Shown here: one piece after another, positions 1 through 12,443 of the stretch
How positions within the stretch are numbered: position 1 is the first letter of the stretch
Layout of the letters: every line of letters begins with the position of its first letter
Assembly (NCBI GenBank): GCA_963727505.1
Contig: CAVSGP010000004.1
Coordinates: forward strand, 1,014,598-1,078,597
DNA length: 64,000 nucleotides
Direction of reading: 5' to 3'
Source of the DNA: an uncultured Trueperaceae bacterium
GTDB taxonomy: Bacteria; Deinococcota; Deinococci; Deinococcales; Trueperaceae
Position numbers and translations under genes: made by a program
The notes under the pieces: generated by a model
Seen by the model: only the letters and a program-made list of their open reading frames with translations
The model's database searches: none
Told to the model about the DNA's origin: nothing

Positions 1-892
1 CGGTGGCAGTGCGGAAGGCGACCACGTCGTCGTGGCTGGGCAGTCCGGCGCGCGCACCGAAGGCGCGGCACGCCATCGCCGCCGCCGTAGCCGCGTAACG
101 GGCGGCCTCCTCGGCGGATGCGCGCCGCGCGATAGCGGCGGCGTACGCGCCGTGAAACACATCGCCCGCGCCGGTGGTGTCCACCGCCTCGACGCGCGGG
201 GCGGACACGTGCAGGGTGTGCTGACCCTCCAGCAGCAGCACCCCCTCCGCACCCAGGGTGATCCCCACCACCTGATCGGGGCGCCGCCGCAGGCGCGGCA
301 ACGCCGCCTCGGGGTCGTCCCGGCCGATCAGCTCCTGCGCGCACTCGCGCGCCACCAGCAGATGATCGGCCAGGCCGGCATCCTCCCAGTGGCGGAGGTT
401 GCCGTAGTCGGCAACGACGGGGACGTTGCCGGCGCGGGCGGCCTCGGCGGCGGCGCGGCACAGGCGAGGATGCCTCAGGTCAACGAGCACCGCCCCGGTC
501 CCTTCGAGGAAACCGGCCGGCAGGTGGGAGGGGTCGTCCTCGAGCCCGCTCCCGCGGTAGGGGAAGATCCACCGTTCCCCGTCGGGCGCCACCAGCACGG
601 CGCTGACGAACGTGCGCGCGCCGGGCAGCCGGTGCACGCCGGAGACGTCCACCCCATGCGCCTCGAGATCGACGAGGGCGGTGCTGCCGGCAGCGTCGTC
701 GCCGTGGAGCGCCACCAACGCGGCGGCCACCCCGAGGTGCGCGGCCGCCGCGGCGGCCGTGGCGGCCGGCCCACCTCCCTGCGTCCGGTAGGCAGTGGCG
801 TCGGTGCGCGAGTGGACCGGCGGGAAGCGCTCGACCCGCCACACGTGATCCAGACACGACAAACCGACACACACCACACGCGGCCCACTCAC
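1..892 (-). CDS. PfkB-family sugar kinase, YihV (sulfofructose kinase)-like; runs off the window at its C-terminus
   Basis: Hand-translated; not in the ORF track because no stop falls in the window. GTG at 892 overlaps the upstream TGA (GTGA). Reads VSGPRVVCVGLSCLDHVWRVERFP...QGGGPAATAA...VDTTGAGDVFHGAYA, containing both PfkB signatures. Confidence 0.92.
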   Translation of the reverse strand, partial: MSGPRVVCVGLSCLDHVWRVERFPPVHSRTDATAYRTQGGGPAATAAAAAAHLGVAAALVALHGDDAAGSTALVDLEAHGVDVSGVHRLPGARTFVSAVLVAPDGERWIFPYRGSGLEDDPSHLPAGFLEGTGAVLVDLRHPRLCRAAAEAARAGNVPVVADYGNLRHWEDAGLADHLLVARECAQELIGRDDPEAALPRLRRRPDQVVGITLGAEGVLLLEGQHTLHVSAPRVEAVDTTGAGDVFHGAYAAAIARRASAEEAARYAATAAAMACRAFGARAGLPSHDDVVAFRTAT

Positions 893-2292
893 GAGCGCAG
901 ATAGGACGCCGGGGGCAGCGCCGGCAGGACGTCCGCACCGAGGTAGGCGCAAAGCTCGTAGAGCGCTTCCACCCGGTCGCCGCGACCGAAGGCGAGGTGG
1001 TGCGGCAACCGCCTGTCGAGCAAGTTGGCGACGAAGGCGCGCACATCGACGGGGCTCTCACCCCAGCGTAGTCCTCCGATCCAACCGCGGACGCCGTCGT
1101 AGCCCACCTTCTCCTCGCGGCGTACCTCGCCGCCGACGATGACGGCGCGCCCCCCGGAGCTCAGCAGCCGGAAACCGGTCACGGGACCGGCCCGCAGGCG
1201 CATGTCGCGCACGACGCCGGTGCCGTCGCGGTTGAAGTGCGTGGTGAGACGGGTGTCGGGACCCCCCGAAGGTCCCGGCGCCGCCCACGCCACGGGCGCG
1301 TTGCCGCAGTGCCAGACCTGGAGGCTGTCGTCGGCCTCGTCCACGTCGGAGAGGTCCATGAGGATGGCGGGGTCGCCGCTGACGCCCTGCAGCGCGAGCA
1401 TCGACAGCGCTCCCATCACGTCCCCCTCGCAGGCGGCGGGCACCTCGCGGCCGCTGGAGTCCCCCATCGCGGCGCATGCCATCGAATCGCAGGTGTCCGG
1501 CACCTCCGGCCAGCACCGCACGGCCAGTGCCGTTGCTCCCGTCTCCTCGGCCAGCCTCTCGAGGGCGGCGTCGATCCGCGCGCCTCGGACGAGCTGCTCG
1601 AACGATACGTCCGCGCGCTCGCGCTCCTGCCAGCCGCGAGCCCGCGCCTCGGCCTCGGCTTCCGGCACCGCCGCCACGCGCTCGAACAGCGCCGCCAGGT
1701 CGCGCGCGACGACCTCGACCCCCTCGAAGGCGGGCGCCTCCTGGAGTCCGTAGAAGCCCGGCGCGGTGCCACCGATCGCCAGGATGCGGGCGCTGTGCAC
1801 CGCAGCCAGACCGCGAAGGGCACCTATCGTGGCCGCGAACCGTCGCCCGAACTCCGGGTCGTCGGGCAGGCCGTAGAACCACTTGACGGGCTCGGACTTG
1901 GCGACCTGGGGCGCGTCCAGCAGCGAGAGCGTCATGTTCAGGCCGCACAGCGAGTTGAGCGGCAAGGGCCCCTCGCGCCAACCGCCCGCCCGCTCCGGCA
2001 CGCCCCACAGGCCGACCCGCTCGGCGGCCGCGAGCAGGGGCGCGACCACGTCGCCGGTCGCGAACGTGGTGAGCTGCACCAGCAGGTAATCGAGGCCCTC
2101 TTCGGCGAGCACGCGGGCCGCTCGCGCGGCCTCGGGCGCGTCCCGCACCGCCTGCACAGGCGCGACCAGCTCGAAGCCGAGCCGCTCCGCCAGCCTCTCC
2201 ATACCTTCGAGGCTGCGGCGCGCAGCCGCTGCGCTGTCCCCCTTGAAGGCGGGCCGCGTCACCGAGACGAACCCGATACGGGGTCGGATCAT
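889..2292 (-). CDS. L-fucose/L-arabinose isomerase-family protein (candidate sulfoquinovose isomerase)
   Basis: Motifs LNSLCG, AVRCWPE, ACEGDV and WHCG, plus C-terminal PHH, typical of FucI/AraA-like isomerases; lies in a sugar operon. Confidence 0.85.
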   Translation of the reverse strand: MIRPRIGFVSVTRPAFKGDSAAAARRSLEGMERLAERLGFELVAPVQAVRDAPEAARAARVLAEEGLDYLLVQLTTFATGDVVAPLLAAAERVGLWGVPERAGGWREGPLPLNSLCGLNMTLSLLDAPQVAKSEPVKWFYGLPDDPEFGRRFAATIGALRGLAAVHSARILAIGGTAPGFYGLQEAPAFEGVEVVARDLAALFERVAAVPEAEAEARARGWQERERADVSFEQLVRGARIDAALERLAEETGATALAVRCWPEVPDTCDSMACAAMGDSSGREVPAACEGDVMGALSMLALQGVSGDPAILMDLSDVDEADDSLQVWHCGNAPVAWAAPGPSGGPDTRLTTHFNRDGTGVVRDMRLRAGPVTGFRLLSSGGRAVIVGGEVRREEKVGYDGVRGWIGGLRWGESPVDVRAFVANLLDRRLPHHLAFGRGDRVEALYELCAYLGADVLPALPPASYLRS

Positions 2293-2299
2293 CGCTGGA

Positions 2300-3232
2300 T
2301 CATCCTTTGACTCCTCCGGCGGTGAGACCGCTGATGATGCGCTGCTGGAAGAACAGGATGAGCAGCACGAGGGGGACGATCCCCAGGGTGACGGCGGCCG
2401 AGATCACCGCCCAGGGGAAGGCGAACTCGCCCTGGTAGAGGGTGATGCCGACGGGAATGGTTCGCATGGTGGTGGCGGTGTTGAACGTCAGCGCCAGCAG
2501 GAACTCGTTCCAGGAGTTGACGAACGCGATGATGCCCGCCGTCACGATACCGGGCGCCGACAACGGGGCCACGATGCGGACGAGCGCGCCCAGCCGGCTG
2601 GCGCCGTCCACCGTGGCCGCCGACTCCAGGTCCTCCGGGATGAGCTGGAAGAAGCTCGTCAGGATCAGGGTGGTGATCGGCAGGCTCAGGGCGACGTAGG
2701 GGATGATCAGTGCCCAGTAGGTGTTGAGCAGGTTCGGCGTCATGACGGTGGTCGGGAGGAAGCTCCACCCCATGGCGTGCAGGTACGCCACGACCTGACT
2801 GAGGCCGGGGACCTCGACGCCTACGAACAGGCGGTAGAGCGGGACCAGCATGACGAGCGCCGGGAACATGCTCGTCATCACGATGGCCGTGAGCAGGGCG
2901 CGGCGGCCGCGCAACCTCAGCCGTGCAAGGGCATACCCTGCCAGGGACGCAAAGAGCACACAGATGAGCGTGGCGACGATGGATACCACCGCCGAGTTCA
3001 ACAGGAACCGGCCGAACGGATTCTGGGTGAACACGTCGACGTAGTTGTGCAGGATCGGATGCTGCGGCAGATAGGTGATCGGGATGCGGGTGAGCTCGTT
3101 CTCCGACTTGAACGACGTCAGCACCAGCCACACCGCCGGGAACAAACCGTTGAGGAGCATCAACAGCAGACCGAGGCGCACGAAGACGTAGCCGATCCGC
3201 TGCTGGGAAGTCCGTCGCGCTGCCCCGTTCAT
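2300..3232 (-). CDS. Carbohydrate ABC transporter permease (MalG-like)
   Basis: EAA loop IPEDLESAATVDGA, WNEFL and C-terminal GLTAGGVKG. Start chosen at the ATG overlapping the upstream stop (ATGA). Confidence 0.93.
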   Translation of the reverse strand: MNGAARRTSQQRIGYVFVRLGLLLMLLNGLFPAVWLVLTSFKSENELTRIPITYLPQHPILHNYVDVFTQNPFGRFLLNSAVVSIVATLICVLFASLAGYALARLRLRGRRALLTAIVMTSMFPALVMLVPLYRLFVGVEVPGLSQVVAYLHAMGWSFLPTTVMTPNLLNTYWALIIPYVALSLPITTLILTSFFQLIPEDLESAATVDGASRLGALVRIVAPLSAPGIVTAGIIAFVNSWNEFLLALTFNTATTMRTIPVGITLYQGEFAFPWAVISAAVTLGIVPLVLLILFFQQRIISGLTAGGVKG

Positions 3233-4350
3233 TCGGTGTAGATCCATCGCAGGTAGATGAGGGTAACGGTCAGGCTGATCACGAACAACACCACCGACAG
3301 CGCCGCCGCATAACCGATGTTGAGGGCCAGCGTGCTGTTGTAGATGTACACGCCTAGCGTCTCCAGACTACGACCCGGGCCGCCGCGCGTCATCGCGAAC
3401 GGGATGTCGAAGGTCTGGATGGCCGTGAGCGTCCGGAAGATCAGGGCGACGGCGATCGAGGGCCGCAGAAGCGGCAACGTGATGCGCCAGAACCGCTGCC
3501 ATGCGTTGGCGCCGTCGACCACGGCGGCCTCGTAGAGGCTGGCATCGATCGACTGAAGGCCGGCCAGGAGGATGAGGCCGACGAAGGAGGACGTCTTCCA
3601 GACGATGGTGAGGTTCACGGCCGCGATCGCGGGTGCCACGCGCGCCAGCCACAGCGGGCCTTGGATGCCGAGATGCCTGAGCACGTCGTTGATGACGCCG
3701 TACTGGTTCTGGAACAACCACGCAAAGGTGAGTCCGGCGAACACCCGCGGCATCGCCCAGGGGAGCAGCAAGGAGACGCGGCCGAGCCAACGGAGTCGCG
3801 ACTCGACGTTGGCGAGCAGGGCCAGCGGCAGGCCGACCACGAACGAGCCGATCACGCTCGCGACGAGGATCACCATCGTGATCGAGAAGGAGTCCCAGAA
3901 GCGGCTGTCCGTCCAGCGGCCGTCGGGACCGGGATGGAAGCCGAGCACATAGATCGAGAGCATGGCCAGGACCAGACCGAGGACCGCACCGGTCAACGGC
4001 GAGAGCCAGCGCCGGCGCACGACCCAGATCAGCGGCGCCAGCAGAGCGACTCCGACCAACCGTAGCCACAGCAGGTGCGAGAGGTTCCACGTCAGCCCCT
4101 CCCCCCAAAGCATCCGCCGGAAGTTCTCGAACCCGATGAAGGGCGTGCCGCGGAAGGGCTGGTTGAGCCGGTTGAAATGCAGCGACTGCCACACCACCGA
4201 GATCATGGGGTAGAGCATCACCGCGGCCAGGGTCAGCAATGCGGGCAGGAGGAAGAGGATGCCCAACTGGGCGTCCGACAGGTTGCCGGTCCGCAGCCTC
4301 CGCCAGAAGCCGGGCTTGCGATAGGGGGTGGTGGAACGGGGTTCGATCAT
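3229..4350 (-). CDS. Carbohydrate ABC transporter permease (MalF-like)
   Basis: FIGFENF, LYEAAVVDGA EAA loop, TRGGPG and multiple TM segments. Confidence 0.93.
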   Translation of the reverse strand: MIEPRSTTPYRKPGFWRRLRTGNLSDAQLGILFLLPALLTLAAVMLYPMISVVWQSLHFNRLNQPFRGTPFIGFENFRRMLWGEGLTWNLSHLLWLRLVGVALLAPLIWVVRRRWLSPLTGAVLGLVLAMLSIYVLGFHPGPDGRWTDSRFWDSFSITMVILVASVIGSFVVGLPLALLANVESRLRWLGRVSLLLPWAMPRVFAGLTFAWLFQNQYGVINDVLRHLGIQGPLWLARVAPAIAAVNLTIVWKTSSFVGLILLAGLQSIDASLYEAAVVDGANAWQRFWRITLPLLRPSIAVALIFRTLTAIQTFDIPFAMTRGGPGRSLETLGVYIYNSTLALNIGYAAALSVVLFVISLTVTLIYLRWIYTE

Positions 4351-4376
4351 GAGTAGATACAGGGTGTCAGATCGGT

Positions 4377-4403
4377 GGGGTGGGGCGACGGGCGCCCCAC
4401 CCC
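4377..4403. other. Intergenic hairpin between binding-protein gene and permease (possible mRNA stabiliser or partial terminator)
   Basis: GGGGTGGGGCG-acggg-CGCCCCACCCC, 11-bp perfect stem. Confidence 0.6.
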
Positions 4404-4429
4404 CGAGATTCGATCGGGGAACGGATCCC

Positions 4430-5695
4430 CTACTGGGACAGGATGTCCTGCAGTCCTGTCTGCATCTTCTTGAGCGTCTGATCGACGGTCAGCGACCGAG
4501 CGAAGAAGGCGTTCATGGTGGTCCGGATCAGGTTGCTGACGTCGGGATAGAGCGGCGTCACCGGCCTGGGCCGAGCGTTGATGATGACGTCGTAGAACTG
4601 CGAGAACTGCGGGGCCGCCTCGAGCACCGCCGGATCCTTGTAGAGGGACTTCCGCGCCGGGATGTTGCTGGCCTTCACCGCCAGCGTGCGCTGGCTGTCC
4701 TCGCTCGCCAGGAAGCGCATCAGCTTGAAGGCGTCCTGCTTGTGCGCGCTGTAGGGGTTCATCGCCCACTGCCAGCCCCCGACGCACGTCGCAGAAGAAT
4801 TGCCCTGGAAGGCGGGCAGCGGCGCCACGCCGACCTTGCCCTTGACGGCGCTGTCCTTGTCGGCCTGGAAGTGCGCCCACGCGTAGCCCCAGTTCAGCAT
4901 GAACACCACGTCGCCGGACTGGAACATCTTACGGGAGTCGTCGGTCCCGACCGAAGCGATGTCAGGGATGGTGATGCCCGACGAGAGCGTCTCGTTGTAC
5001 CAGTCGAGCGCCTGCTTGCCGGCCGCCGTGTCGACGGTGATGTTGCCGTTGGCGTCGCGCCAGTTGCCGCCTGCCGTCCACAGCGCCTCGAGGAAGGTGC
5101 AGTTGGTGCCCTCGATGGCGGCGCCCTGGTAGTTGAAGCCCTGGAGCCTGGGGTTGTTCTCCCCCTTCATGATGGTGAGCGCTTCGCTCTTCAGCTCTTC
5201 CCAGGTCTTGGGCGGCTTGAGACCGTACTTGTCGAGCAGGTCCTTGCGGTAGTAGAGGAACTGCGCGTCGGTGAAGGCGGGGACGGCGTACAGCTTGCCG
5301 TTCACCGTATCGGCGTTGACCGGGCCGGGCAGGAACGACGCGAGGTAGGTCTTCTCCGCGTCGGGGCTCGCGAAGTAGCTGTTGAGCGGCTCGGCCCAGC
5401 CCGAGGCTGCGTACTGCGCGGGCCGCACGACGTCGATGAGCATCACGTCGATCGCCGACGACTTGCTGGTGAGCACGGTGCTCAGGTACTGCTGCTGTAC
5501 ATCACTGGTCGCACCGCCCACCTCGAAGGTGGCGTGCATGTCGGGGTTCTCGGCGTTGAACTTGTCGAGCAGGGGCCCGATCACGTCGGGTCGCTGCTGA
5601 CCGCCGATGAAGACCTTGAGATTCACCTGGGCGGCGCCGGTCGCGAGCAGCGCGGCGAACGCCAGGGCGAGCAGGATGCGGGTGAGTCGGTTCAT
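4430..5695 (-). CDS. Sugar ABC substrate-binding protein, SmoF (sulfoquinovose/SQ-glyceride binding)-like
   Basis: Signal peptide MNRLTRILLALAFAALLATGAA, GGAGG RBS upstream, and LYYRKDLL / PPKTWEEL motifs. The track's extension to 6895 overlaps the LacI gene. Confidence 0.9.
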   Translation of the reverse strand: MNRLTRILLALAFAALLATGAAQVNLKVFIGGQQRPDVIGPLLDKFNAENPDMHATFEVGGATSDVQQQYLSTVLTSKSSAIDVMLIDVVRPAQYAASGWAEPLNSYFASPDAEKTYLASFLPGPVNADTVNGKLYAVPAFTDAQFLYYRKDLLDKYGLKPPKTWEELKSEALTIMKGENNPRLQGFNYQGAAIEGTNCTFLEALWTAGGNWRDANGNITVDTAAGKQALDWYNETLSSGITIPDIASVGTDDSRKMFQSGDVVFMLNWGYAWAHFQADKDSAVKGKVGVAPLPAFQGNSSATCVGGWQWAMNPYSAHKQDAFKLMRFLASEDSQRTLAVKASNIPARKSLYKDPAVLEAAPQFSQFYDVIINARPRPVTPLYPDVSNLIRTTMNAFFARSLTVDQTLKKMQTGLQDILSQ

Positions 5696-5742
5696 GATTA
5701 CCTCCGGAATCGTCTTGGGTCGTTGGCGAACGGACGGGTCGT

Positions 5743-6777
5743 CTACGCAGGCGGCACCTCCATCGTGGCGGGGGGACCCGTGCTGTCTCGGACGATGAGC
5801 TGGGTCGCCAGCCGGACCGACTGGACGGACCCGCCGGCCATCAGGGTGAGAAGCGCGTCGAAGGCCATCTCGCCAAGGCGGCGTGTCGCCTGCCGGACCG
5901 AGGTGAGGGCGGGGCGGGCCACGGCGGCGAGCGGCGTGTCGTCGAAGCCGACCACCGAGACGTCGCCGGGTACGCAACGGCCCGCCGCCGCAAGGGCGCG
6001 CAACGCCCCCAGAGCGACCAGGTCGTTGTTCGCGAGCACGGCCTCGAAGCGCGTTCCGCCGGCGATCAGGCGCGCGCAGGCCTCGGCGCCGCCCGTGCGA
6101 CTGTCGTCGGTGGGCACCAGCAGCGAGCGGTCGGCCACCAGCCCGAAGGTCTCGACTCCGGTCCGGTAGGCACGGATGCGCCGTTCGGCGTAGCGCGAGC
6201 CGCGGGGCCCGCTCAGGAACGCCACCCGTCGTAGACCGAGCTGCTCGAGGTGCGCCAGCGCCTGCCACACCCCGGCGCGCTCGTTGCTGCCGATGCTCAC
6301 CGCGTCGAGGCTTCGCGGGCCGGCATGGATGGCGACCACCGGATAACGAGCGGTGATCAGGCGATTGAGGCCGTCGACGTCGTCGTCGGTCACGCTGGAT
6401 CCGAGCACGAGCAGGCCGTCGACACGACCCTCGCGCAGCCACAGCGTGAAGTCGGGACGGGGCGCCGTTGAGAGGAGCAGCGGGAAGCCTGCCTCCTCGG
6501 CCCGGCTGGTGACGCCGAGCAGGAGCTCGCTGAAGTAGGGGTTGGCGAAGACGAGTTCGGAGCTCCGGGGAAGCATCAATCCGACGGCCTGCGCCCTGCG
6601 GCGGGTCAGCGCCCGGGCTGCGGCGTCGGGACGGTAGCCAAGCGTGTCGGCGAGCTCCCGGACGCGCGTACGGGTGGCCGCGGCGATCTGGGGGTCGTCC
6701 CGCAACGCACGCGACACCGTGGAACGGGCCAACCCCAGCCGCTCGGAGAGGTCCTTCAGAGTGAGCTTGCGCCTCAC
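5743..6777 (-). CDS. LacI-family transcriptional regulator
   Basis: HTH TLKDLSERLGLARSTVSRAL, hinge YRPDAAARAL, and VSVVGFDD / LTSVRQ. Confidence 0.95.
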   Translation of the reverse strand: MRRKLTLKDLSERLGLARSTVSRALRDDPQIAAATRTRVRELADTLGYRPDAAARALTRRRAQAVGLMLPRSSELVFANPYFSELLLGVTSRAEEAGFPLLLSTAPRPDFTLWLREGRVDGLLVLGSSVTDDDVDGLNRLITARYPVVAIHAGPRSLDAVSIGSNERAGVWQALAHLEQLGLRRVAFLSGPRGSRYAERRIRAYRTGVETFGLVADRSLLVPTDDSRTGGAEACARLIAGGTRFEAVLANNDLVALGALRALAAAGRCVPGDVSVVGFDDTPLAAVARPALTSVRQATRRLGEMAFDALLTLMAGGSVQSVRLATQLIVRDSTGPPATMEVPPA

Positions 6778-6848
6778 ACTCGACCGCCCGTCTCCCCGCC
6801 CCGATCGGCCCACGACGCGCGGCCCTCAGGGACGATGCGGAAGCTACT

Positions 6849-6864
6849 TCGCAACCGGTTGCGA
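6849..6864. promoter_or_regulatory. Putative LacI-family operator
   Basis: Perfect 16-bp palindrome TCGCAACCGGTTGCGA with a central CG, about 70 bp upstream of the LacI start. Confidence 0.75.
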
Positions 6865-6921: not shown

Positions 6922-9900
6922 TTACAGCGCGCCCTGTGCCTGAAGCCGGCGCGCCACCTCGTCGGGGGCGAGCGGAGGAGCGAAGAGGTAGCCCTGGCCG
7001 TAGTCGCAGCCCAGCTCGAGGAGCGTCTCGAGCTCCTCTTCGCGCTCGATACCCTCGGCCACCGCGTCGATTCCGAGGCTCCGGGCGAGCCCGACGATGG
7101 TGCTCACCACGTCCCTGTTAGCCGCGTCGGCGTCGATCCCTCGCACGAAGGAGCCGTCGATCTTGAGCGAGTCGATGGGGAGACGCTGGAGGTACTTCAG
7201 CGAGGAGAAGCCGGTGCCGAAGTCGTCCACCTGGACCCGCACGCCCATCCGATGAAGGCTCGTGAGCGCCTCGGCAGCGGCCTCCGGATAGCTCATCAGG
7301 GCGCCTTCGCTGATCTCGAGCTTGAGACTGGAAGCCGGCGCGCCCGCCTCCTCCAGAGCAGCTCGCAGCATCGTGTCCATGTCCTGCAGCGCGAGGTGCC
7401 GGGCCGACACGTTGACACTGACCACGGGGGGCGGCACGCTCCCGTCCAGCTCGCGTGCCCAGGTCGCGAGCTGACGCGTCGCCTGGCCGAGCACCCAGCG
7501 ATCGATCGCGACGATCTGGCCCGACTCCTCGGCCAGCGGCACGAACTCCGACGGAGGGACGAGCCCGCGCTCCGGGTGCTGCCAGCGCACCAGCGCCTCG
7601 ACGCCCACCAGGCGGCGTTCTCGCAACTGGTAGACGGGCTGGTACTCGAGGAACAGCTCGTTGCGATCGGGCGCACGGTGGAGGCTGGTCTCCAGCTGCA
7701 TCTGCCCGAGCGCGCGGGCGTGCATGCCCTTGTCGAAGATCGCGAAGCGCGCCTTGCCCGACGCCTTGGCGCGGTACATGGCGATGTCGGCGTCGCGCAG
7801 CAGTTCCTGAGGATCGCGGTAGTGGGGCGCGGAGAAGGCGATCCCGATCGAAGCACTCGTGAAGATGTCGTGACCGTGCAACGTGAACGGCTCGGCGAGA
7901 GCGCTCTGGATGCGCGTGGCGGTCGCGGTCGCGTGGTCGGGGCCGTCGACGTCCTCGATGAGCACGCAGAACTCGTCTCCTCCCAGCCGGGCCACTGTGT
8001 CGGAACCGCGCACGCAGGTCTTGAGGCGCACGGCCAGGGCCTTGAGCAACTCGTCGCCGGCGTTGTGGCCGAGGCTGTCGTTGACGACCTTGAAGCGGTC
8101 GAGATCCAGGAAGAGCAGCGCGAAGTGCCAGGACTCGTTGCGGGCGGCGCGCGACAGGGCCTGGCGCAGGCGGTCGAGCAGGAGCACGCGGTTGGCCAGG
8201 CTGGTCAGCTCGTCGAACAGCGCACCCTGCACCAGGCGTTCCTCGATGCGTTTGCGCTCGGTGATGTCGCGCGACGACGTCACGAAGTTGACCACCTCTC
8301 CCCGCTCATCACGCACACTCTGGGCGACGGTCTCGAGCCACACGTAGCGACCGTCGGCGCGCCGGAAACGGTACCCGACCTGGACCGACTCCTGTCCCTC
8401 CAACAGGCGCTGCCGTCCACCCTTGCGCACCCGGTCGCGGTCCTCCTCGTGGATCAGCGTGAAGGGGTCGATCCCCACGAGCGCGTCCGGGGCGTAACCG
8501 AGAACGGTGGTCGCCGATGGGCTGACGTAGACGCAGCGCCCCGCAGGGTCGTGCAGACAGACCAGGTCCTGCATATGCTCGGCGAGCAGGCGGAAACGCT
8601 GCTCGCTCTGTCGGACGACCCCGTAGAGGCGGCCGCGTTCCGCCGCCACCCCGAGCTGTTCGCCCAGGGCCCGCAGCATCCGGAGGTCCTCGTCGGCCGA
8701 GCCGGCGGCGCGGCCCTCCGCCACAAGCACGCCCACCACACCGTCGCCCGCCACGAGCGGGACCGCTGCCTGCCACGGAGCCGCGACCGGCGCCCCGCCG
8801 ACACCGGTCGCTTCGTCGTTTGCGCCGCCTCCGATGAGGAGCGGCTCACCAGTCTCGGCCACGCGGGAGGCGACTTGCGTCACCTCACCGAGCGCGTTTC
8901 GCGCCGACGCGCTCTCGTAGCCGAGCTGATGCTGCAACACCAGCTCGCCCCCGACCCATGCGAACAGACCCACCCTGCGGTACCCCAGCACCTCCACTGT
9001 TGCCGATGCCGCAGCGGCGAACACCGCCTGCAGGTCGAGCTCGCTGGCGACCGCGCCACGGACCCGATCGAGCAGCGTCAATTCGGCCGCCTGGCGCTTC
9101 GCGGCCTCGAACAACGATCGGTACTCGGCGGCCTGGCCACGGCTCTGTTCCACCAGAGCCAGCCGGTCGAGCGCGTTGCCGCAGGCCAGCGCGATGGCCT
9201 CGAGGAAGCCCGTGTCCTCGCGCTCGAAGCTGCGGCTCCCCGCCTGGGCCAGCGCGCTCACGACGCCGACGATCTCGCCCTCGCCGTTGCGCAGGGGCGT
9301 GCCCAGGAAGGCCACCGGCCGCGGGGCCCCGGACGGGACCGGCACATCGGTCAGGCCGGCGGCGTCGCGCACGCCGACCGTCCGGCCCTCGTCGACCACT
9401 TGCCAGGCAAGCCCGCCCTCGCCCCGCGTCACCGGGTGCCCGCCCACCGGGTAGGCGTCCCGACCGCCGTCCGCCCGGCTCCCGACCCGCCGCAACACGT
9501 CGGCCTCCACGTCGATGAGGTAGAGGTCGCACACGTCGGCACGTGTCATCTCCAGCACGGCCTTGAGGGCACGCATGACGACATCGCGACGGCGCGTGGC
9601 CCCACGCAGCGCCTCGCTGGCGCTCACCACGGCCTCGAGCTTGGCGAGCTGCCACTCGCGCTGCTCGGCGTCGTGCTGGCGCACCAGCGCGAGCTCGATG
9701 CTGTTGGAGAGCTGTGCGAGCGTGTCCCGGACGTGGCCGTCGAAGGTACGCGGCTCGTAAGCGCAGAACACGATCATCCCCCACGGCTGCCCCCGCAGCA
9801 TCAGGGGTTGAGCCGCGTAGGCGGCCACCGGACCGTCGTCGTGCTCGCGGAAGCGCGGCCGAGGGTCGGTCTCGAGCGACGCCAGCGGGCCCCGTGTCCC

Positions 9901-12186
9901 GGCGACCCAGCCCGCCTCGATCAGCGCTGTCTCGAGATCCTCGTCATGAACGCCCGCGGGATCGAAGACGTCGAGCGCCACGTCGTTGGCCTCGAGGTGC
10001 AACACCGCCATGCGCTCGAAATCCAGGCCCGGGACCTCCAGCGCCAGGCGCGCCAGCACCGGGAAGAAGTCGCTCAGGTCGCCGCCCACCAGGAGCAGGC
10101 GCTCGATATCGGCCAGCAGGGCGTTCAATCGTGCAGCCCGGTCACGCCGCTCCTCCAGCCGGAGGCGCTGGAGCAGTGCGGCGACCTGCAGCCCGTACGC
10201 CTCCGCCATGCCGATCGCCTCGGGAGGGAAGCCGTCCTCCGCGTCCAGATTGTCGAGCCGTAGGGAGGCCTCCACGCGCCCGTTCAGCTCCACCGGCACC
10301 GCGAGCGACACGGCCGGCCCGGGCCCCGCCCGCATCTCGCGTGCCGCGCGCGAGCGCGCCCCGTCGACCCCCCGGTCGAGCGCGTCACCCCGGACCAGTC
10401 GGGGCCCGGGCCGGCCCGGGCCCTCGTGACCGAGGTCGCGCTCGTCGAACCGTGCCCGGGCCAGCGTGGCGGCCTCCGCGCCGGTTGCCGCGGCGAGCGT
10501 GAACCCGCCGTCCGACCCGCGCACCAGGACACAGCCCCCCTGTGCGCCGGGGATCACGCCGACGGCGCGCTCTAGCAGGGCCTGGTAGAACGCGGGGGTG
10601 ACCTCCTGGGCCAGGAGCTCTCTCGTCACATCCAGGAGCGAGGCCTGGTACCTGCGGTAACGCTCGCTCGCCAGCTCGCCGCTGCGCCGGCGGACCGCCG
10701 CCTCGAGTGCAGCGGGGGCCGCACGGAGCGTGTCGACCACCAGGGGCAACCAGCGCGGATGCGGGGCCGGCCACTCGAAGGCCAGCACCCGGGACACGCC
10801 GTCCCCCGCGGATACCGGCAACAGGGCCACGTATCCCACGCCGATGGCCTGCAAGACGTCGCGGTCGCGGGCCGGTACCTCGTCCATGTCTCCCGCGAAA
10901 CCCGGTCGCGTGACGGCCCAATCGAGCAACCGGGACCCGTAGGGTGGGTGCCCGTCGGCCCAGGCGGCAGCTTGCAGGTTCTCCCAGCGACGCGTGCGGG
11001 GGACTCCCGGCGGTTGGCCTCCCGGCCAGCCGCCGGGTGCGGCGTCGAACTCCAGCAGCGCCACCCGGCTGGCGCCGCTGGCGAATCCCAGGCGGGCGAG
11101 CATGCCGTCGACGGCGACCGCCCAGTCCGGCTCCTCCAGGAACTCGCGGGCGGCGGCCTCGGCCGCGGCGAGCACCTCCGCGCGCCGGCCCAACGCATCG
11201 GCCGCGGCGCGCCTCGCCGTCACGTCCCGGATGATGAGGAGCCTCCCTGAATTGGGCAACGGGTGGCTCCTCGCTTCGTAGACCGGGCCAGCGTCGACCG
11301 GCGGCAGCTCCACCGACTCGCGCCCCATGACCGCGAAGTCCCGCCGGATCGACGACAACGGCCGCCCCAACGCGAGCGGGGCGGTCACGCCCAACGCCCG
11401 CTCGGCGGCCGGGTTCACGTCCAGCACGACACCATGCTCGTCTACCAGGATGAGCCCGTCGCCGAGGCCGGCGAACACGTCGCGATACTCGACCGGACCG
11501 CGCAGCTCGGCCCAGCGCCGCTCCATGCCCCAGGCCAGCAGCACCGCGCTCACCCCCAGGCCGACCGGCGTCAGGTCGATCGCGGACAGGGTCCCCAGCG
11601 AGAGGAACCCGTAAGCGGCCACCGCCAGAGACGGCAACGGCGCCAGCGCGAGCAACGCCGCGCCGGCCCGCTCCCTGGGCCGCCCCCGGGGCGTGCCCAG
11701 GGCAAACACCAGCGAGATGGCGATCCCCAGGGCGAATCCCGCCCCGACCCACCAGACCCAGAAGGCGGGTCCGGGGAGGACACCCAAGGAGCTCAGGCCG
11801 ACGACCTCGACCGGCACCAGTGCTCGCCACACCCAGGGGGTGACGGCGGGCGTCCACACCAGGGCGCCGGCACCCACCGCGGGCACCAGCAGGAGGCTGA
11901 CGATCGAGGCCTTGCGGCCCACCAGCCGCAGCGCCGCGATCAGCGCCAGCACAGGCGTGACAGCGGCGGCGCTGAGCGCCAGTCGCACGGTGAGCTCGAG
12001 TTGGGCGTCGGGTGCCCGGGCCCACGAGAGGAGTACCGCGAGCGACCAGGCCACCACGGCGACGGCAAGCGCCCCGAACGCCCGACGGCCGGGCTCCCGC
12101 CGCCGCGCCAGCGACCACCCGATCGCCGGGAAGGCGATCATGGCCGTCAGCAACGGCAACGCCAGCAGCATCAGCTCCAGTTTCAT
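6922..12186 (-). CDS. Membrane-anchored diguanylate cyclase/phosphodiesterase (7TM-PAS-multiple GAF-PAS-GGDEF-EAL)
   Basis: About seven N-terminal TM helices; RGSD I-site, RLGGDEF, EALVRW, DDFGTGFSSL, AEGIE and QGYLF. Confidence 0.93.
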   Translation of the reverse strand: MKLELMLLALPLLTAMIAFPAIGWSLARRREPGRRAFGALAVAVVAWSLAVLLSWARAPDAQLELTVRLALSAAAVTPVLALIAALRLVGRKASIVSLLLVPAVGAGALVWTPAVTPWVWRALVPVEVVGLSSLGVLPGPAFWVWWVGAGFALGIAISLVFALGTPRGRPRERAGAALLALAPLPSLAVAAYGFLSLGTLSAIDLTPVGLGVSAVLLAWGMERRWAELRGPVEYRDVFAGLGDGLILVDEHGVVLDVNPAAERALGVTAPLALGRPLSSIRRDFAVMGRESVELPPVDAGPVYEARSHPLPNSGRLLIIRDVTARRAAADALGRRAEVLAAAEAAAREFLEEPDWAVAVDGMLARLGFASGASRVALLEFDAAPGGWPGGQPPGVPRTRRWENLQAAAWADGHPPYGSRLLDWAVTRPGFAGDMDEVPARDRDVLQAIGVGYVALLPVSAGDGVSRVLAFEWPAPHPRWLPLVVDTLRAAPAALEAAVRRRSGELASERYRRYQASLLDVTRELLAQEVTPAFYQALLERAVGVIPGAQGGCVLVRGSDGGFTLAAATGAEAATLARARFDERDLGHEGPGRPGPRLVRGDALDRGVDGARSRAAREMRAGPGPAVSLAVPVELNGRVEASLRLDNLDAEDGFPPEAIGMAEAYGLQVAALLQRLRLEERRDRAARLNALLADIERLLLVGGDLSDFFPVLARLALEVPGLDFERMAVLHLEANDVALDVFDPAGVHDEDLETALIEAGWVAGTRGPLASLETDPRPRFREHDDGPVAAYAAQPLMLRGQPWGMIVFCAYEPRTFDGHVRDTLAQLSNSIELALVRQHDAEQREWQLAKLEAVVSASEALRGATRRRDVVMRALKAVLEMTRADVCDLYLIDVEADVLRRVGSRADGGRDAYPVGGHPVTRGEGGLAWQVVDEGRTVGVRDAAGLTDVPVPSGAPRPVAFLGTPLRNGEGEIVGVVSALAQAGSRSFEREDTGFLEAIALACGNALDRLALVEQSRGQAAEYRSLFEAAKRQAAELTLLDRVRGAVASELDLQAVFAAAASATVEVLGYRRVGLFAWVGGELVLQHQLGYESASARNALGEVTQVASRVAETGEPLLIGGGANDEATGVGGAPVAAPWQAAVPLVAGDGVVGVLVAEGRAAGSADEDLRMLRALGEQLGVAAERGRLYGVVRQSEQRFRLLAEHMQDLVCLHDPAGRCVYVSPSATTVLGYAPDALVGIDPFTLIHEEDRDRVRKGGRQRLLEGQESVQVGYRFRRADGRYVWLETVAQSVRDERGEVVNFVTSSRDITERKRIEERLVQGALFDELTSLANRVLLLDRLRQALSRAARNESWHFALLFLDLDRFKVVNDSLGHNAGDELLKALAVRLKTCVRGSDTVARLGGDEFCVLIEDVDGPDHATATATRIQSALAEPFTLHGHDIFTSASIGIAFSAPHYRDPQELLRDADIAMYRAKASGKARFAIFDKGMHARALGQMQLETSLHRAPDRNELFLEYQPVYQLRERRLVGVEALVRWQHPERGLVPPSEFVPLAEESGQIVAIDRWVLGQATRQLATWARELDGSVPPPVVSVNVSARHLALQDMDTMLRAALEEAGAPASSLKLEISEGALMSYPEAAAEALTSLHRMGVRVQVDDFGTGFSSLKYLQRLPIDSLKIDGSFVRGIDADAANRDVVSTIVGLARSLGIDAVAEGIEREEELETLLELGCDYGQGYLFAPPLAPDEVARRLQAQGAL

Positions 12187-12443
12187 CGTCCTGCCCCCCG
12201 ACGCAGCGGGGTCCCCCACGTGTGCGGCCTCGGACCGCTCCCGTCGGGACCCGACCGCCAGCGCCCCCCGCACGCGGGGTCCCGGCAGCGTTGGCCCTCC
12301 ATTGTCCCCACGCCTCGCTCCCGATCCCGTGAAATCGCGTACCTGGCCGCACGCACTTCCGCTCGCCGACCCTCCGTGCGGTAGGCTGGACGTCCCCGCC
12401 CCCGCGAGGGGGCCAAAGCCATGCACGGAGGAGAGCCCAAGCG

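Follow-up and report, generated by a model that had tools for sequence, protein, structure and literature searches.

Which sugar is imported and degraded by the products of the operon at the left end of the DNA stretch analysed here? The stretch (the window; 64,000 nucleotides, G000:C4:1014598-1078597) belongs to the genome of an uncultured member of the Trueperaceae, phylum Deinococcota (G000; 3.26 Mb, 70% G+C, 97% complete). An initial annotation, made from the letters of the window, had described a minus-strand unit of operator, LacI-family repressor, sugar-binding protein, two permeases, fucose-isomerase-like isomerase and PfkB-family kinase. It had predicted that the unit continues past base 1 and had proposed that it encodes a mosaic sulfo-EMP route (EMP, Embden-Meyerhof-Parnas) for the plant sulfosugar sulfoquinovose (SQ). 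Every part of the unit was found, and on the same strand, left of base 1, it continues with the genes for a class I aldolase and two Gfo/Idh/MocA-family oxidoreductases, named here Ox1 and Ox2 (Table 1).

It is fairly probable that this LacI-controlled catabolic operon handles SQ or its glycerol glycoside. Four partly independent lines lead to this reading: a binding protein resembling SmoF, a kinase with the arginine set of the YihV type, conserved linkage to genes of C3-sulfonate breakdown and accessory genes held in common with sulfonate clusters of Chloroflexi. Confidence in it is limited by the placement of the isomerase and by two steps that have no assigned enzyme.

The binding protein and the kinase resemble SmoF and YihV

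The best solved relative of the binding protein was SmoF, aligned over the full length with 376 bits (E 1.7e-111) and about 45% identity over aligned residues, as counted from the match line of the alignment. The next ones were MalE3 (252 bits) and a trehalose/maltose-binding protein (243 bits). SmoF (PDB 7nbz and others) binds SQ-glycerol and belongs to the sulfo-SMO pathway of Agrobacterium tumefaciens; its sulfonate pocket is formed by Gln12, Ser43, Gly166 and Thr220, and the sugar hydroxyls are contacted by His13, Asp67, Asp113, Trp276 and Arg345 (PMC8940949, accessible part). Eight of these nine contacts were kept in the operon protein (Q12, S43, D67, D113, G166, T220, W276 and R345), with Gln in place of H13, and T220, D67, D113, G166 and R345 were invariant in 20 orthologues from Trueperaceae. 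The protein is like SmoF in Thr220 and in the backbone positions of the sulfonate pocket, whereas the operon would serve a cleavage (EMP-type) route and SmoF serves a monooxygenase route. The best 120 of the 2783 matches to the binding protein were all generic or unnamed proteins of the Trueperaceae type.

The kinase matched Pfam PfkB (PF00294) with 156 bits, and its best solved relative was the sulfofructose kinase YihV (PDB 7ag6; 142 bits, with ribokinases at 97 or less). A sulfonate triad of Lys27, Asn109 and Arg138 and the absence of the TR/RRS phosphate motif have been described for YihV (PMC8006165, part of the article). In the alignment with E. coli K-12 YihV, R138 and its salt-bridge partner D162 were kept and K27 was replaced by Arg, which leaves position 27 basic; the PfkB fold, the catalytic GAGDVFH motif, Asp13 and Ser95 were also common to both proteins. 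Orthologous kinases of other Trueperaceae likewise carried Arg138, Arg27, Asp162 and GAGDVFH. Position 138 was occupied by Glu, Glu, Thr and Leu in E. coli ribokinase and the three PfkB paralogues of the genome, so that Arg was found in none of the four. Among the PfkB genes of the genome the operon kinase showed the highest identity to E. coli YihV (36%).

The expected aldolase of the YihT/LacD family is also present. It matched PF01791, the Pfam family of YihT, with 80 bits and retained the Schiff-base Lys193 and the Arg253 of YihT. In two Pseudomonadota loci (L066 and L076), aldolases 41-42% and kinases 34-36% identical to those of the operon were encoded beside isomerases of the clade with SQ context (clade A, described below).

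The operon recurs in related loci of Trueperaceae

The comparison set consisted of 80 loci around relatives of the isomerase, 50 of which, all of the Trueperaceae type, had an isomerase at least 50% identical to that of the window. Many of these loci ended at contig borders. The GC3-based caller of open reading frames missed or mis-called the aldolase of L066, the kinase of L044 and the isomerase of L074, and these were covered by tblastn. Among the 50 Trueperaceae-type loci, the kinase was found in 41, the aldolase in 32, Ox1 in 36 and Ox2 in 34. All five core genes were present and collinear in 29, and the genes for the SmoF-like binding protein and LacI were adjacent in 15 and 16, respectively. 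The arrangement of the operon is not due to chance. The isomerase occurred in 58 of the 128 species-level Trueperaceae genomes (three to five of these 58 being weaker paralogues, and one unpublished genome, G090, being counted), in 35 of the 79 good-quality ones and in 21 of 36 genera.

Genes of C3-sulfonate metabolism are linked to the operon

Past the end of the operon, at a distance of 6.5-9 kb, were the genes cuyA and cuyB, and after them came a gene for a D-2-hydroxyacid dehydrogenase similar to 3-phosphoglycerate dehydrogenase (PGDH-like). The products of cuyA and cuyB exceeded the equivalog cut-offs of NCBIfam, the D-cysteate sulfo-lyase CuyA with 528.6 bits (cut-off 450) and the cysteate racemase CuyB with 264.7 bits (cut-off 190). 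Upstream of this cluster, on the other strand, a DeoC-type aldolase and a 626-aa aldehyde dehydrogenase were encoded. An aminotransferase gene was found at L085:17961-19508. Because sulfolactate is the sulfonate analogue of 3-phosphoglycerate, the PGDH-like enzyme, the aminotransferase, CuyB and CuyA would form a plausible path leading from sulfolactate to pyruvate, sulfite and ammonia.

In 14 Trueperaceae loci, an orthologue of the 2-hydroxyacid dehydrogenase (55-60% identical) was found immediately behind Ox2 in convergent orientation; three of these loci continued with CuyB and CuyA, and a fourth with CuyB, at which it ended. Copies 46-51% identical were detected in five Chloroflexi loci with isomerases of the SQ-context clade. 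In 15 of the 18 Trueperaceae genomes with CuyA and the isomerase on one contig, representing eight genera, the two genes were 5-17 kb apart, and in the remaining three the distance was 45 kb, 310 kb and 1.7 Mb. CuyA itself was detected in 107 of the 128 genomes at E 1e-100 or better. As it is nearly universal, its presence alone is uninformative and only the linkage counts. Use of cysteate or C3-sulfonates is suggested to be a trait of the family.

A second group of genes, the SuyAB-like cluster, encodes a GntR regulator, a second 2-hydroxyacid dehydrogenase, SAF-like and altronate-dehydratase-like subunits, a Gfo/Idh/MocA protein and TctABC, with a divergent SsuA-family ABC transporter beside it. 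The two-subunit form, with a small SAF-like and a large dehydratase-like protein, presumably resembles that of the sulfolactate sulfo-lyase SuyAB; no profile match named the genes so. Uptake of sulfolactate by a transporter of the tripartite tricarboxylate type has been described previously. The small subunit was 47% and the large, SuyB-like one (C4:968697-969848) 62% identical to their counterparts in the Chloroflexi locus L072. Within the family the SuyB-like gene was limited to the genus of the window, where it occurred in the window genome and in eight of nine others.

The oxidoreductase pair recurs in Chloroflexi clusters of the SQ type

Ox1 and Ox2 were 26% identical to each other (60 bits). 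Their counterparts in L072 were 36% (191 bits) and 42% (233 bits) identical, respectively, and a counterpart of Ox1 in L074 was 44% identical. L072 combines a clade-A isomerase and a LacD-type aldolase with a phosphofructokinase (PFK)-type kinase, an aldehyde dehydrogenase, Ldh_2, a YihU-like gene and SuyAB-like genes, and L074 carries a transaldolase. In both loci a xylose-isomerase-like TIM-barrel gene, for which no counterpart was found in the window genome, adjoined the oxidoreductase genes, and no gene of glycoside hydrolase family 31 (GH31) was present in the stretches of these two loci that were examined. Since the pair accompanies different cleavage routes of the SQ type, it suits a shared step, either the freeing of SQ from its glycoside or the processing of sulfolactaldehyde. 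The operon contains no other candidate for either step, so that two gaps stand beside two orphan enzymes.

Gfo/Idh/MocA-type enzymes act in multi-enzyme oxidise-eliminate-hydrate-reduce routes for glycosides and levoglucosan, which are analogous. GH188-type enzymes of the Gfo/Idh/MocA fold occur in SQ clusters devoid of GH31 (PMC10755693). In the NAD+-dependent sulfoquinovosidase SqgA of GH188, the sulfonate is contacted by Arg166, Lys172 and the Leu170 backbone, and the catalytic residues are Lys107, Tyr136, His193 and His321 (ArSqgA numbering; PMC10755693). Ox1 and Ox2 are like SqgA in having a fold of this type, and unlike the GH188 entries, mostly of about 404 aa, they are about 335-350 aa long. 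The solved structures related to Ox1 and Ox2 say little about their function, as 1,5-anhydrofructose reductase, inositol dehydrogenases and DgpA all scored between 57 and 88 bits.

About 12 Trueperaceae loci carry, between Ox1 and Ox2, an additional gene that weakly matched Peptidase_M24 (creatinase/prolidase fold), for example at L024:14002-15621 and L053:13783-15675. It is absent from this position in the window genome.

Proposed pathway

We infer the substrate and every reaction described below from gene content and order, protein families, conserved residues and conserved linkage. The SmoF-like binding protein and the two permeases, together with an ATPase encoded elsewhere, would import SQ or SQ-glycerol. 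The SftI-like isomerase would convert SQ to sulfofructose, which the YihV-like PfkB kinase would phosphorylate to sulfofructose-1-phosphate, and the class I aldolase of the LacD/YihT family would cleave the latter to dihydroxyacetone phosphate and sulfolactaldehyde. The translationally coupled Ox1 and Ox2 may fill one or both of the gaps, that is the liberation of SQ from its glycoside by NAD-dependent oxidoreduction and the oxidation of sulfolactaldehyde to sulfolactate. The neighbouring PGDH-like dehydrogenase, the aminotransferase, CuyB and CuyA would then lead from sulfolactate through sulfopyruvate and cysteate to pyruvate, sulfite and ammonia, and in the genus of the window the SuyAB-like lyase cluster, 45 kb away, could provide a second route of desulfonation.

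A more far-reaching proposal is that the locus encodes a self-contained route from the SQ-glycerol of plants and algae to sulfite, in which Ox1-Ox2 would be a two-enzyme system of glycoside cleavage distinct from GH31 and GH188, or a new sulfolactaldehyde oxidoreductase, the PGDH-like enzyme, CuyB and CuyA would carry out desulfonation and the clade-B isomerase would have been recruited independently as a second lineage of SQ isomerases. This extension is tentative and rather unlikely to hold in full.

Neither a sulfoquinovosidase nor, within the operon, an enzyme of known type for sulfolactaldehyde was found, and both results count with the evidence against SQ weighed in the next section. A check of the GH31 motif in the genome and a comparison of Ox1 and Ox2, as whole proteins and by N-terminal domain, with the GH188 structures (8qc2 and 8qc3) revealed no sulfoquinovosidase; these structures matched Ox1 and Ox2 at 38-62 bits, no better than many members of the family. 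The single GH31 of the genome was considered for this role and rejected: it is of the MalA-like alpha-glucosidase type, with G, a gap and F at the positions R301/W304/Y508, where the GH31 of Fictibacillus, which served as control, shows R, W and Y. Genes of the YihU or SlaB type were not found in the operon, candidates for the sulfolactaldehyde step being encoded elsewhere in the genome (an aldehyde dehydrogenase at L001:1861-3738 and a YihU-like and SlaB-like pair on contig C6). The search of the genome revealed no YihS-type isomerase (PF07221), DUF4867 protein or transaldolase. No TauE gene was linked to the operon, and six matches were located elsewhere in the genome; the TauE family occurred in 13 of 14 control genomes, so that these matches are uninformative. 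The mosaic sulfo-EMP proposal of the initial annotation thus gains the aldolase and keeps the likeness to SmoF and YihV, and it has against it the divergent isomerase and the lack of a GH31 with the sulfonate motif and of an in-operon sulfolactaldehyde enzyme.

Two GH31 genes of the comparison set, L077:11349-13586 (Rhodospirillales metagenome-assembled genome, MAG) and L078:15573-17984 (Ktedonobacteria MAG), are located in SQ-type clusters and lack R301/W304/Y508. Their products may not be sulfoquinovosidases or may use another mode of recognition, which makes both loci weaker SQ controls.

The isomerase and alternative substrates

Several further observations weigh against SQ as the substrate, and the isomerase is the weak link. 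Its sole NCBIfam match was the SQ isomerase SftI (NF048012), covering the full length with 124 bits at a cut-off of 700, and the Pfam model Fucose_iso_C (PF02952) gave 19.9 bits, under the gathering score of 29.3. It is the only gene of its type in the genome. The isomerase of the textbook sulfo-EMP2 cluster of Fictibacillus, which also encodes an aldehyde dehydrogenase, a class II aldolase, a PFK, DUF4867 and a GH31 carrying the R/W/Y motif, reached 822 bits with the SftI model. Other isomerases in SQ-type contexts scored 214-315 bits, proteins of Anaerolineae, Clostridia and a Spirochaete 128-199 bits and those of Trueperaceae 115-136 bits. As all clade-A isomerases except that of Fictibacillus are also below 700, the SftI model is narrow.

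A quick maximum-likelihood tree (IQ-TREE) was built from 40 sequences: the window isomerase, those of 11 representatives of the 50 Trueperaceae-type loci and 28 of the 30 others, with two near-duplicate Fictibacillus rows omitted. The tree has several long branches and splits into clades A and B (SH-aLRT 100). All isomerases for which an SQ context was recognisable fall into clade A, and the window isomerase is placed in its sister, clade B, the other members of which lack SQ markers. The clade-B genes of L051 and L055 are accompanied by Zn-alcohol dehydrogenases, an ADP-ribosylglycohydrolase and nucleoside hydrolases, that of L060 by ABC and alcohol-dehydrogenase genes, that of L062 by ribose-type ABC genes and that of L050 by a PFK and a Cgl0159-like protein. 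The likeness to SftI/SqvD of the sulfo-TAL, sulfo-TK and sulfo-EMP2 pathways that the initial annotation had noted therefore holds for the fucose-isomerase-like family and the full-length alignment and is a distant one, given the score far under the cut-off and the position in clade B.

L051 and L055, both Anaerolineales MAG loci, contain two Zn-alcohol dehydrogenases as well as an ABC transporter and a SorC-type regulator. They seem to encode an uncharacterised pathway, with a ribosyl- or nucleoside-derived sugar as the substrate.

The leading alternative, which accommodates the placement of the isomerase outside the clade of SQ-context isomerases, is that the operon degrades another sugar with an anionic or modified C6, such as a uronate, sulfofucose, sulforhamnose or a 6-deoxyhexose, by the same logic of isomerase, kinase and aldolase. 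A uronate would give tartronate semialdehyde, and the C3 acid formed would be the substrate of the 2-hydroxyacid dehydrogenase encoded nearby. The aldolase matched the tagatose-bisphosphate aldolase subfamily (NF009498) with 307 bits, over the cut-off of 184, and was nearer to a DUF2090 protein (8tnf, 244 bits) and LacD (141 bits) than to YihT (76 bits). The basic residues of the kinase indicate an anionic group without naming it, and the third residue of the YihV triad, N109, is replaced by Pro. Moreover, with an identity of about 35-36% the kinase is not the reciprocal best match of YihV by bit score, as E. coli YihV matched three other PfkB genes of the genome higher (99, 94 and 91 versus 82 bits). 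The resemblance to YihV claimed earlier therefore stands for the nearest solved structure and the sulfonate arginine and fails at Asn109. In the binding protein, the position of SmoF Q12 varied among the 20 Trueperaceae orthologues, and binding of SQ is reported to be poorly predictable from sequence alone (PMC8940949, accessible part). Such a substrate is nevertheless unlikely, because SmoF is clearly the nearest solved binding protein and the residues holding the 3- and 4-hydroxyls of a gluco-configured sugar are kept, the conserved neighbours CuyA and CuyB are sulfonate-specific equivalogs, and orthologues of Ox1, Ox2 and the 2-hydroxyacid dehydrogenase occur in Chloroflexi loci with SuyAB-like genes.

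The substrate could also be a compatible solute or a neutral alpha-glucoside, for example trehalose, maltose or glucosylglycerol, degraded via 3-keto intermediates by Ox1 and Ox2, with the linkage to cuyAB as inherited synteny. The binding protein belongs to the trehalose/maltose-binding subfamily and has the same contacts to sugar hydroxyls: D67, D113, G166, W276 and R345 are common to MalE3 and the trehalose/maltose-binding protein, and position 220 is Thr in the latter as well. The likeness to SmoF proposed at the outset consequently holds for the overall score, and most of the contacts are common to trehalose/maltose binders. Ox1 and Ox2 gave their highest scores with models of inositol dehydrogenase and 1,5-anhydrofructose reductase, and weaker ones with glycoside 3-dehydrogenase. 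The failure to find a sulfoquinovosidase also suits a neutral glucoside, as does the near universality of CuyA, which exceeded the cut-off in 103 of the 128 genomes independently of the operon; the SuyB-like gene occurs in one genus, and the CuyA linkage among relatives can be inherited. On the other side, a neutral hexose gives no reason for an isomerase, a 1-kinase and a class I aldolase and leaves unexplained the Arg138/Arg27/Asp162 set of the YihV type, absent from ribokinase and the paralogues. SmoF scored more than 120 bits above the neutral-sugar binders, and the Ox pair is also present in a sulfonate cluster of Chloroflexi. A neutral glucoside is therefore considered decidedly unlikely.

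A pathway of the inositol type, in which Ox1 and Ox2 would be IolG-like dehydrogenases, the kinase IolC-like and the aldolase of the DUF2090/LacD type, is highly improbable: IolG was the top NCBIfam model of Ox1 and Ox2 (136 and 129 bits, cut-off 355), the kinase weakly matched IolC (73 bits) and the best solved relative of the aldolase is a DUF2090 protein, but all scores of the IolG/IolC type are far under their cut-offs, Pfam and NCBIfam searches revealed no inosose dehydratase, thiamine-dependent hydrolase or IolB-type gene in the operon, and the transporter is a CUT1 system of the oligosaccharide type with a SmoF-like binding protein.

Relation to known SQ clusters

Clusters for sulfo-EMP pathways combine an isomerase of PF07221 (YihS) or PF02952 (SqvD), a kinase of PF00294 or PF00365 and an aldolase of PF01791 (class I) or PF01116 (class II), along with a sulfolactaldehyde reductase (YihU) or dehydrogenase (SlaB) and a sulfoquinovosidase of GH188 or of GH31 with the R301/W304/Y508 motif, and hybrid clusters have been published, including the combination of PF02952, PF00294 and PF01791 (PMC10665668, part of the article). 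A hybrid pathway is also reported from Vibrio (PMC13372026, accessible part). The operon has the PF00294 kinase and the PF01791 aldolase of this scheme. Like the hybrid clusters as far as the accessible part of PMC10665668 describes them, it brings together a distantly SqvD-like isomerase, a YihV-type kinase, a YihT-type class I aldolase and a transporter. Unlike them, it has no SQ mutarotase, no recognised sulfoquinovosidase and no YihU/SlaB and carries two Gfo/Idh/MocA genes instead; its isomerase belongs to the sister clade, its aldolase is nearer to LacD and its host is a member of the Deinococcota. If SQ is the substrate, the operon is a variant of hybrid sulfo-EMP and not a new pathway type. 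The mosaic as such was already in print (PMC10665668, part of the article) and is less novel than the initial annotation had assumed. The novelty seems to lie in the host lineage, the divergence of the isomerase, the pair of oxidoreductases and the CuyAB linkage.

The hosts reported for hybrid sulfo-EMP were Proteobacteria and Actinobacteria (PMC10665668, accessible part), and known SQ degraders in general are mainly Proteobacteria, Firmicutes and Actinobacteria, as stated in the accessible parts of PMC12890257 and PMC13436972. The words Deinococcus, Deinococcota and Truepera did not occur in the articles PMC12890257, PMC13372026, PMC10665668 and PMC13436972, and the supplement of PMC10665668 did not contain them either. 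A full-text literature search for SQ together with Deinococcota or Truepera taxa revealed no paper joining them among the 15 best-ranked matches, and no description of a paired Gfo/Idh/MocA step in SQ clusters was found among the best 12 of 94 matches. The list of GH188 proteins (PMC10755693, supplement) contains 13 Deinococcus-Thermus entries, 12 from Thermaceae (Meiothermus and Calidithermus) and one unclassified, with no Truepera. On account of the Thermaceae entries, the phylum is not wholly new to SQ biology.

If the SQ reading is true, the SQ degraders would come to include a widespread group of uncultured Deinococcota that tolerate salt and desiccation, and complete mineralisation of SQ in one cell may replace the excretion of C3-sulfonates. 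Because the core enzymes are under the equivalog cut-offs, surveys of SQ degradation based on BLAST or HMM thresholds would miss the Trueperaceae. The two orphan oxidoreductases, recurring in Chloroflexi clusters of the SQ type, could then represent a new enzyme function. Should the SQ reading fail, the operon would mark an uncharacterised sugar pathway built on the same isomerase family.

Operon layout, regulator and flanking genes

The genes of the operon either overlap or are separated by gaps of at most 79 bp, and the stops and starts of the aldolase, Ox1 and Ox2 genes abut or overlap. A GGAGG sequence was located seven bases 5' of the ATG of the binding-protein gene. No ABC ATPase is encoded within the operon. 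For the LacI repressor every NCBIfam match was under its cut-off, the top one being RbsR-like (155 bits), and the same applied to the matches of the first permease to UgpA, GlcT and MalF and of the second to GlcU, MalG and UgpE.

Table 1. Positions of the operon and of neighbouring features. Positions without prefix refer to the window; L001 is the leftward locus (window position = L001 position minus 18000)
Feature	Position	Strand	Remarks
Operator palindrome	6849-6864		16 bp, perfect, TCGCAACCGGTTGCGA; ~35 bp 5' of LacI start; predicted LacI operator
LacI-family repressor	5743-6813	minus	356 aa; Pfam LacI HTH + Peripla_BP_3/1
CUT1-type periplasmic sugar-binding protein, SmoF-like	4430-5695	minus	421 aa; Pfam SBP_bac_1/8
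ABC permease, MalF/UgpA-like	3229-4350	minus	up to 373 aa; Pfam BPD_transp_1
ABC permease, MalG/UgpE-like	2300-3247	minus	315 aa; Pfam BPD_transp_1
Fucose-isomerase-like aldose-ketose isomerase	889-2292	minus	467 aa; distant SftI/SqvD relative
PfkB-family sugar kinase	1-952	minus	start uncertain (892-952); stop 43 bases left of window (L001:17957)
Class I DeoC/LacD/YihT-family aldolase	L001:17932-16733	same as operon	off-window; Pfam PF01791
Gfo/Idh/MocA oxidoreductase Ox1	L001 ~16760-15678	same as operon	off-window; Pfam GFO_IDH_MocA
Gfo/Idh/MocA oxidoreductase Ox2	L001 ~15680-14656	same as operon	off-window; Pfam GFO_IDH_MocA
Dpp-type ABC transporter	L001:8364-12353		after cuyA-cuyB cluster
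cuyA-cuyB-2-hydroxyacid dehydrogenase cluster	L001:5302-8140 (G000:C4:1001899-1004737)	plus	left of window
SuyAB-like cluster	L084:6446-17435 (G000:C4:964446-975435)		45 kb away from operon

Within the window the palindrome occurred as a single copy; among 100 shuffled sequences, not one yielded a match even when one mismatch was allowed. With 0-3 mismatches it was found 35-75 bp 5' of LacI in all 16 loci with a LacI orthologue. A search of the genome for further members of the regulon revealed one site with one mismatch and one with two mismatches, the latter inside a malic enzyme gene; neither was linked to sulfonate genes. The site with one mismatch, at L086:4680 (G000:C8:23680), is located 5' of a second set of CUT1 binding protein and two permeases and has an aldo-keto reductase, a TRAP transporter and a further LacI paralogue in its neighbourhood. 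It may reflect cross-regulation or merely a related operator.

At its end the operon converges with a plus-strand gene, as seen in the plot of G+C content by codon position. This gene (L001:12372-14693, plus) encodes a membrane protein of 773 aa that crosses the membrane several times and has a soluble domain in its centre; no Pfam or NCBIfam match was obtained for it at E 0.001 or better. An open reading frame of up to 1834 aa occupies positions 6922-12426 of the minus strand, directly upstream of the operon. In its translation, PAS/GAF-like stretches and membrane segments were recognised by eye, as were the motifs GGDEF (RLGGDEFCVL) and EAL (EALVRW), and the product is probably a c-di-GMP signalling protein.

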